Source of the DNA: Escherichia coli
Lineage (GTDB): Bacteria > Pseudomonadota > Gammaproteobacteria > Enterobacterales > Enterobacteriaceae
Strand: one strand, 5' to 3'
DNA length: 64,000 bases
Assembly (NCBI RefSeq): GCF_048403405.1
Contig: NZ_CP183129.1
The position numbers and the translations under genes are program-made. The notes beneath the pieces were generated by a model. That model ran no database searches. It was not told the origin of the DNA and worked only from the letters and a program-made list of their open reading frames with translations. Below, in pieces: positions 17,314 to 17,339 of the stretch. Positions within the stretch are counted from its first letter, which is position 1, and the number at the start of each line of letters is the position of its first letter.

Positions 17314-17339
<26 letters not shown>
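16611..17339 (+). CDS. mpaA: Murein peptide amidase A (zinc carboxypeptidase-like)
   Basis: ORF 16551..17339; start at MTVTRPRAERG (242 aa); HGDE zinc motif (GTHGDENSS). Confidence 0.85.

Follow-up and report, generated by a model that had tools for sequence, protein, structure and literature searches.

The window, that is, the whole 64,000-nucleotide stretch of Escherichia coli DNA that was analysed, contains a peptidoglycan-peptide recycling cluster composed of mppA, pgrR, ycjY, an SDR gene, mpaA, ycjG, tpx, and tyrR. Within this cluster, mpaA, which encodes a murein tripeptide amidase (242 aa, 729 nt), occupies positions 16611-17339 of the plus strand, and ycjG, which encodes an L-Ala-D/L-Glu epimerase (321 aa, 966 nt), occupies positions 18279-17314 of the minus strand; both coding sequences (CDSs) are present in the open reading frame list and were annotated by PGAP on an identical sequence. 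The two enzymes catalyze consecutive steps of one pathway, and both genes belong to the PgrR regulon, in agreement with the gene identities and the functional link that an earlier note on this DNA had proposed.

The 3' ends of mpaA and ycjG overlap tail to tail by 26 bp (17314-17339, both strands), as seen from the bases and from a frame map of the region. The mpaA stop codon TGA is located at 17337-17339, and the CTA at 17314-17316 of the plus strand corresponds to the ycjG stop codon TAG on the minus strand. The translations accordingly end in ...HPKDAIRPS* for MpaA and in ...FTTGELHL* for YcjG. The overlap and the two stop positions (17339 and 17314) given in the earlier note were therefore exact, and the same 26 bp are annotated by RefSeq/PGAP in K-12 MG1655, O157:H7, and CFSAN018748, the last of which is 100% identical to the window across 16400-18500. 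Older K-12 coordinates (ycjG 1386954-1387919, mpaA 1387894-1388682; Huang et al., 2020) also give a 26-nt overlap. The arrangement is thus already known: E. coli annotations have carried it for decades, and a published excludon map includes the pair.

Both products are real enzymes. MpaA matched the Pfam family Peptidase_M14 and PDB entry 5HXD ('Protein MpaA', E 7e-166), and YcjG matched the MR_MLE_N and MR_MLE_C domains, with MR_MLE_C reaching residue 318 of 321, and PDB entry 1JPD over residues 1-321. With both products matching solved structures and Pfam domains, mpaA/ycjG is confirmed as a genuine convergent overlapping CDS pair. The earlier note had allowed for a sequencing error or a different true stop that would remove the overlap. 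The only hint in this direction is the length of the crystallised E. coli MpaA chain in 5HXD, which comprises residues 1-237 instead of 242 residues. Against it, the stops are the same in the three annotated strains, 5,413 of 5,426 complete E. coli genomes carry 80% or more of the 2.1-kb locus, both frames are open to overlapping stops in 76 of the 81 species-level loci described below, the full YcjG C-terminus is present in the 1JPD structure, and even the shortest natural MpaA (...RWQP*) still overlaps ycjG by 4 bp. An annotation or sequencing artefact, with one stop wrong and no real overlap, can on these grounds be set aside as next to impossible.

Further observations concern other parts of the window and the closest record. 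An intact gene for a 212-aa SDR-family oxidoreductase lies between ycjY and mpaA (15682-16320, plus strand); at that place K-12 retains only a 138-bp truncated pseudogene remnant (ymjC/ymjD region), which indicates a deletion in the ycjY-mpaA operon of K-12. Away from the mpaA-ycjG locus, the window and CFSAN018748 (NZ_CP028192.1) share 97-99% identity, and a copy of IS200C located between uspE and ynaJ in that record is absent from the window (~9400-10120); the two sequences therefore belong to different strains. PGAP flags in NZ_CP028192.1 (locus coordinates 395-1211, 3778-5222, and 26987-29254) indicate frameshifts in abgB and in a gene of the AraC family, and an internal stop in ycjT. For window ~55300-62800 (minus strand, sapF to fabI), the closest annotated record lists an MFS transporter, an outer-membrane factor, an RND permease, a periplasmic adaptor, and a TetR regulator.

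Junction states in the Enterobacteriaceae and the two protein tails

The junction was surveyed in 80 Enterobacteriaceae loci, taking one genome per species, together with two E. coli records. Both genes were found in 81 of these loci, in which both frames were walked to their first stops. The genes overlap in 76 of the 81, by 4-47 bp. The 10-bp overlap is the most frequent state (44 loci) and occurs in Enterobacter, Lelliottia, Leclercia, Kluyvera, Kosakonia, Raoultella, Trabulsiella, Yokenella, Pseudocitrobacter, Silvania, and others, and the 26-bp overlap is found in 27 loci, all of them Escherichia, Salmonella, or Citrobacter. A 4-bp overlap was detected in Lelliottia WAP21, Huaxiibacter, and Pluralibacter gergoviae, a 33-bp overlap in one Pluralibacter MAG, and a 47-bp overlap in Citrobacter youngae ATCC 29220. 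In the other five loci the genes are separated by a spacer of 88-331 bp, which in each case consists of inserted DNA. The inserts are palindromes of the REP type or a small ORF of 39 codons, the ORF being accompanied by a textbook bidirectional terminator in three loci.

In a neighbor-joining (NJ) tree of mpaA plus ycjG, midpoint-rooted, the loci with 26 bp form a single clade nested among lineages with 10 bp. A single nucleotide beside the ycjG stop, within the codon for MpaA Pro235, distinguishes the two states. The 10-bp junction reads ...CAG CCT CAG AGG TGA, with MpaA ending in ...QR* and the overlap having the form TCAnnnnTGA, whereas the 26-bp junction reads ...CAT CCT AAA GAT GCA ATT CGC CCG TCG TGA; in the latter the terminal frame of mpaA is shifted and five extra codons precede the next stop. 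With midpoint rooting in place of a true outgroup, parsimony suggests that the 26-bp state was probably derived from the 10-bp state. In the lineages with 4 bp, MpaA ends in ...RWQP* and YcjG in ...LHL*, which means that the functional ends of the two genes abut with zero spacer, and with the ends abutting, drift of either stop codon yields an overlap.

Further changes of this kind are seen in the Citrobacter youngae group, in which the ycjG stop was lost and YcjG gained seven codons (...LHLKDASAKD*). In three loci of the group (L015, L018, and L019; ~4683-4708) mpaA acquired a TGA seven codons earlier, giving again a 26-bp overlap, displaced by 21 nt, and in the fourth (L023; 4683-4729) the old mpaA stop was retained, which gives the 47-bp overlap. 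Altogether, at least six changes in overlap length took place, and insertions between the genes (a terminator, a REP element, or a small gene) are tolerated in five lineages. The overlap is an inherited and ancient feature and not a chance coincidence; yet it is not rare.

The 39-codon ORF lies on the ycjG strand between mpaA and ycjG in four Enterobacteriaceae genomes (L044:4727-5038, L047:4730-5013, L051:4727-5057, and L053:4727-5029). Its MIEWEDESVATQDELMKRMIDTVAAVVLVLIVVAGLYFA-like product is conserved in the four genomes and has a hydrophobic C-terminal half; no Pfam or NCBIfam family matched it. In three of the four (L044, L047, and L053) a perfect bidirectional terminator follows the ORF. 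REP/BIME-like palindromes are positioned exactly at the mpaA/ycjG junction in two loci (L042:4727-4814 and L051:4727-4850), where they form a spacer at the place at which other species have an overlap.

The two C-termini differ in conservation. The YcjG C-terminal codons F314-L321 (FTTGELHL; 17317-17340, minus strand) are conserved and belong to the region of the MR_MLE_C match; across all overlap classes, LHL is conserved at 85-100% and FTTG at ~70-100%. The MpaA tail codons K236-S242 (KDAIRPS; 17316-17336, plus strand) lie past the ...LLRW(H/Q)P sequence, and in tail alignments both the sequence and the length of this part of the protein vary across the family. KDAIRPS, KDEVARS, and KDGVDPS are found among the tails of the 26-bp form. 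No Pfam match reaches K236-S242, and the Vibrio MpaA structure 4AXV aligns only to residue 235. According to the frame map, codon positions 2, 3, and 1 of mpaA are paired with positions 3, 2, and 1 of ycjG. Since ycjG third positions face mpaA second positions, synonymous drift in ycjG rewrites the MpaA tail. It is the conserved C-terminus of YcjG (FTTGxLHL) that dictates the sequence of the overlap, and the last seven residues of MpaA, which lie beyond the conserved domain, appear dispensable, as judged from their conservation and from the crystallised 1-237 chain.

Termination signals and RNA structure at the junction

A terminator scan of 16300-18300 returned no terminator-like site, and the junction itself folds weakly (-10.7 kcal/mol); a G+C-rich hairpin with an A-tract and a U-tract, as expected for a bidirectional intrinsic terminator, does not span the two 3' ends. 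For comparison, six further convergent gene pairs of the window were inspected (uspE/ynaJ, ynaI/mppA, tpx/tyrR, ycjW/ompG, pspF/puuE, and sapF/MFS); they are separated by 43-119 bp, and a strong hairpin is present in every one of these spacers.

Within the coding sequences, the 151 nt past the mpaA stop fold with -56.4 kcal/mol, which is more stable than shuffled sequences (z -2.75; 1 of 200 shuffles as good). This fold is what would speak for a hidden RNA element, namely an in-CDS hairpin acting as a cryptic, possibly bidirectional, terminator or as a 3'-end stabiliser. However, the hairpin lacks a downstream U-tract, and nothing was returned by the terminator scan in this region. The opposite strand folds no better than shuffles (z -0.19). 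In a gap-free alignment of 81 sequences, 65.6% of cells are paired compared with 66.1% after shuffling, the covariation score is 0.057 compared with 0.062, and in no covariation measure does the hairpin past mpaA exceed its shuffled controls. Moreover, the list of Adams et al. (2021; PMC7815308) gives ycjG neither a Term-seq 3' end nor a Rho region, be it inside the gene or antisense to it. A functional element of this type is very improbable, and a conserved RNA element or cryptic terminator 3' of mpaA was rejected on account of the missing U-tract and the absence of covariation in the 81 relatives.

The RNA of the ycjG strand contains a C-rich, G-poor stretch (C/G 1.5-2.0) at 16833-16993 (minus strand), which is +320 to +480 past the ycjG stop. 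A bicyclomycin (BCM)-sensitive Rho termination region antisense to mpaA was reported at MG1655 position 1390286 (+), with reads of 47/14 in untreated cells and 58/68 with BCM, a Rho score of 3.94, and a p value of 7.2e-5 (Adams et al., 2021; PMC7815308, Supplementary file 2). Mapped onto the window, this region lies at ~16923, inside the C>G stretch and ~390 nt beyond the stop of ycjG; the position is approximate, the published method working with 800-nt windows. The earlier note had stated that the overlap leaves no room for terminators. This is correct as far as a spacer or an intrinsic terminator is concerned, but not for Rho-dependent termination, which according to the published BCM data takes place inside mpaA.

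A further hairpin is present at the other end of mpaA. It consists only of G and C pairs (GCGCCG-AACG-CGGCGC), is followed by ATTT, and lies at 16630-16650 of the plus strand, 20-39 nt into the mpaA ORF; a Term-seq 3' end classified as 'internal' was mapped to this very place, at MG1655 1390559, 39 nt from the mpaA start (Adams et al., 2021; PMC7815308). The hairpin could be a premature termination or processing site that limits mpaA expression.

Antisense RNA and the interpretation of the junction

Published data show that the overlapping opposite-strand transcripts at mpaA/ycjG are real. In the wild type, sense and antisense reads amount to 51 and 10 RPM for ycjG and to 74 and 18 RPM for mpaA (Huang et al., 2020), so that antisense RNA represents ~20% of sense RNA across both genes. 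p19-captured dsRNA was recovered at 25-54 RPM for ycjG and at 55-112 RPM for mpaA (Huang et al., 2020), and these values put mpaA close to the top 13.5% of genes. Within mpaA, p19 captured RNase III duplexes at two sites, 16739-16762 and ~16794-16816 (Huang et al., 2020, Table S3); the second has 1 mismatch in the present strain. p19 duplexes lie 160-180 nt beyond the Rho region, which implies either leaky termination or another antisense start. ExcludonFinder (NAR 2025; PMC12288877) lists ycjG-mpaA among 165 convergent excludons of MG1655, with overlapping 3' ends in half or more of 58 RNA-seq samples, tpx-ycjG among 16 divergent excludons, and mpaA-ycjG-tpx among 3 noncontiguous operons; these listings are based on RNA-seq coverage alone.

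These data may be read in a stronger sense, in which the pair is a functional excludon or noncontiguous operon, the lack of a terminator and the obligatory overlap of the transcripts having been selected, with interference and RNase III cleavage modulating the partner gene and tpx. The three ExcludonFinder entries, the RNase III duplexes in mpaA together with the dsRNA reads of both genes, the position of tpx under a top-20 dsRNA cluster, and the retention of the overlap in most species-level loci (76/81) are all consistent with such a function. On the other hand, the coverage criterion is trivially met by any transcribed convergent pair with overlapping CDSs: when the CDSs overlap and both genes are transcribed, transcript overlap follows automatically. 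Complementary 3' ends were reported for 276 of 370 (75%) convergent E. coli operons, with a mean overlap of 286 nt, also where a spacer separates the genes (Conway, 2014), and mutual exclusion would be physiologically odd for consecutive enzymes of a shared PgrR regulon. Sense RNA did not rise in RNase III mutants (wild type/rnc-14/rnc-38: 51/39/33 RPM for ycjG and 74/42/22 RPM for mpaA; Huang et al., 2020). The repeated changes in overlap length and the five lineages with inserted elements also argue against it, and we consider this reading unlikely.

The earlier note had expected a collision of antisense transcripts. Of this expectation, the antisense overlap itself stands, through the antisense reads, the RNase III duplexes, and the excludon list, although it is not specific to the CDS overlap, being common to most convergent operons. 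Neither polymerase collision nor any regulatory consequence found support, both genes being weakly expressed and their sense RNA not being elevated in the rnc mutants.

Regarding the neighboring gene, tpx (18398-18904 of the window) is wholly covered by S-116, which ranks among the 20 most abundant dsRNA clusters that p19 captured in E. coli. Read-through from tyrR to ycjG or the ycjG 5' UTR has been proposed as the origin of the antisense RNA over tpx; this read-through proposal and the ExcludonFinder noncontiguous operon concern opposite strands. A more elaborate scheme would be that the junction is kept by selection in the Enterobacteriaceae as a device that balances the recycling of murein tripeptide. 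Transcription of the ycjY-mpaA operon, under PgrR control, and of ycjG, possibly fed by tyrR read-through, would then adjust one another as well as tpx via interference and RNase III cleavage. Such a device would be a genuine excludon or noncontiguous operon tying cell-wall recycling to thiol peroxidase, but we judge its existence improbable, even more so than that of a functional excludon in general.

We consider it quite likely that mpaA/ycjG is an ordinary, ancient convergent junction with zero spacer, and that its features are a by-product and not a dedicated device. The overlap would be explained by abutting C-termini, a one-nucleotide reset, a disposable MpaA tail, and Rho termination inside the partner gene. 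The functional C-termini of MpaA (approximately ...LLRW-H/Q-P235) and YcjG (...LHL321) would be encoded by directly abutting DNA; because the C-termini abut, the stop codon of each gene falls inside its partner, and the length of the overlap would be given by the position of the next in-frame stop. In the ancestor of Escherichia, Salmonella, and Citrobacter, the loss of 1 nt beside the ycjG stop would have shifted the terminal frame of mpaA and added five codons, leading to the 26-bp form. The cost of dual coding would be negligible, with a disposable 7-residue MpaA tail following bases that are set by the YcjG C-terminus.

The same reading, an ordinary zero-spacer junction, would also accommodate the RNA data. 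Since there is no intergenic hairpin terminator, each transcript runs antisense into the partner gene. The published BCM data suggest that Rho ends the RNA of the ycjG strand a few hundred nucleotides into mpaA, and mpaA-strand RNA, which has no mapped discrete end in ycjG, may continue toward tpx, as claimed in the literature from coverage. The low-level antisense RNA and the RNase III duplexes would most likely be tolerated by-products at two weakly expressed genes that are co-regulated by PgrR. Against this view, the family-wide persistence of the arrangement and the consecutive enzyme steps could reflect selection for it, and the ExcludonFinder entries and the high rank of the mpaA dsRNA reads also count against it. 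If the junction did regulate the recycling of peptidoglycan peptides, it would represent one more case of a known mechanism.

Comparison with known systems

Among the known arrangements, convergent excludons (PMC12288877) include ycjG-mpaA itself on their published list. In most listed pairs the genes are separated by a spacer (mean 95 nt), and for 146 of 165 overlapping terminators are predicted, whereas ycjG-mpaA has neither a spacer nor an intrinsic terminator. Reciprocal expression is the functional hallmark of excludons, and for ycjG-mpaA the PgrR co-regulation and the rnc data point against it.

The noncontiguous operons described by Saenz-Lahoya et al. (2019), with menE-menC-MW1733-ytkD-MW1731 of S. 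aureus, resemble mpaA-ycjG-tpx in that a same-strand pair is split by an opposite-strand gene, with transcriptional overlap at both ends, which corresponds to the ExcludonFinder class. For mpaA-ycjG-tpx this assignment is a coverage-based table entry, and tpx is expressed ~10-fold more highly (Huang et al., 2020 data) and has a promoter-like site of its own just upstream.

Another parallel is the suppression of untranslated and antisense RNA by Rho (PMC7815308). The ycjG-strand RNA is likewise untranslated past its stop and then enters a C>G stretch and the published BCM-sensitive region. The ycjG site differs in that it is located inside a coding region of the opposite strand and would serve a protein-coding gene as its de facto terminator.

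A likeness also exists to the convergent overlapping CDS pairs of bacteria, which arise when a stop codon is lost or shifted and of which 75 were counted in one E. coli genome (Huvet and Stumpf, 2014; PMC4161906). As in mpaA/ycjG, the genes of these pairs lie on opposite strands and share from a few to a few tens of nucleotides. Shifts of a stop codon or of the frame alter how far they overlap, and the overlap affects a poorly constrained protein tail. Nothing essential differs between mpaA/ycjG and these pairs; its particular features are that the overlap of 26 bp is longer than the 4 or 10 bp of its relatives and that both genes act in one pathway.
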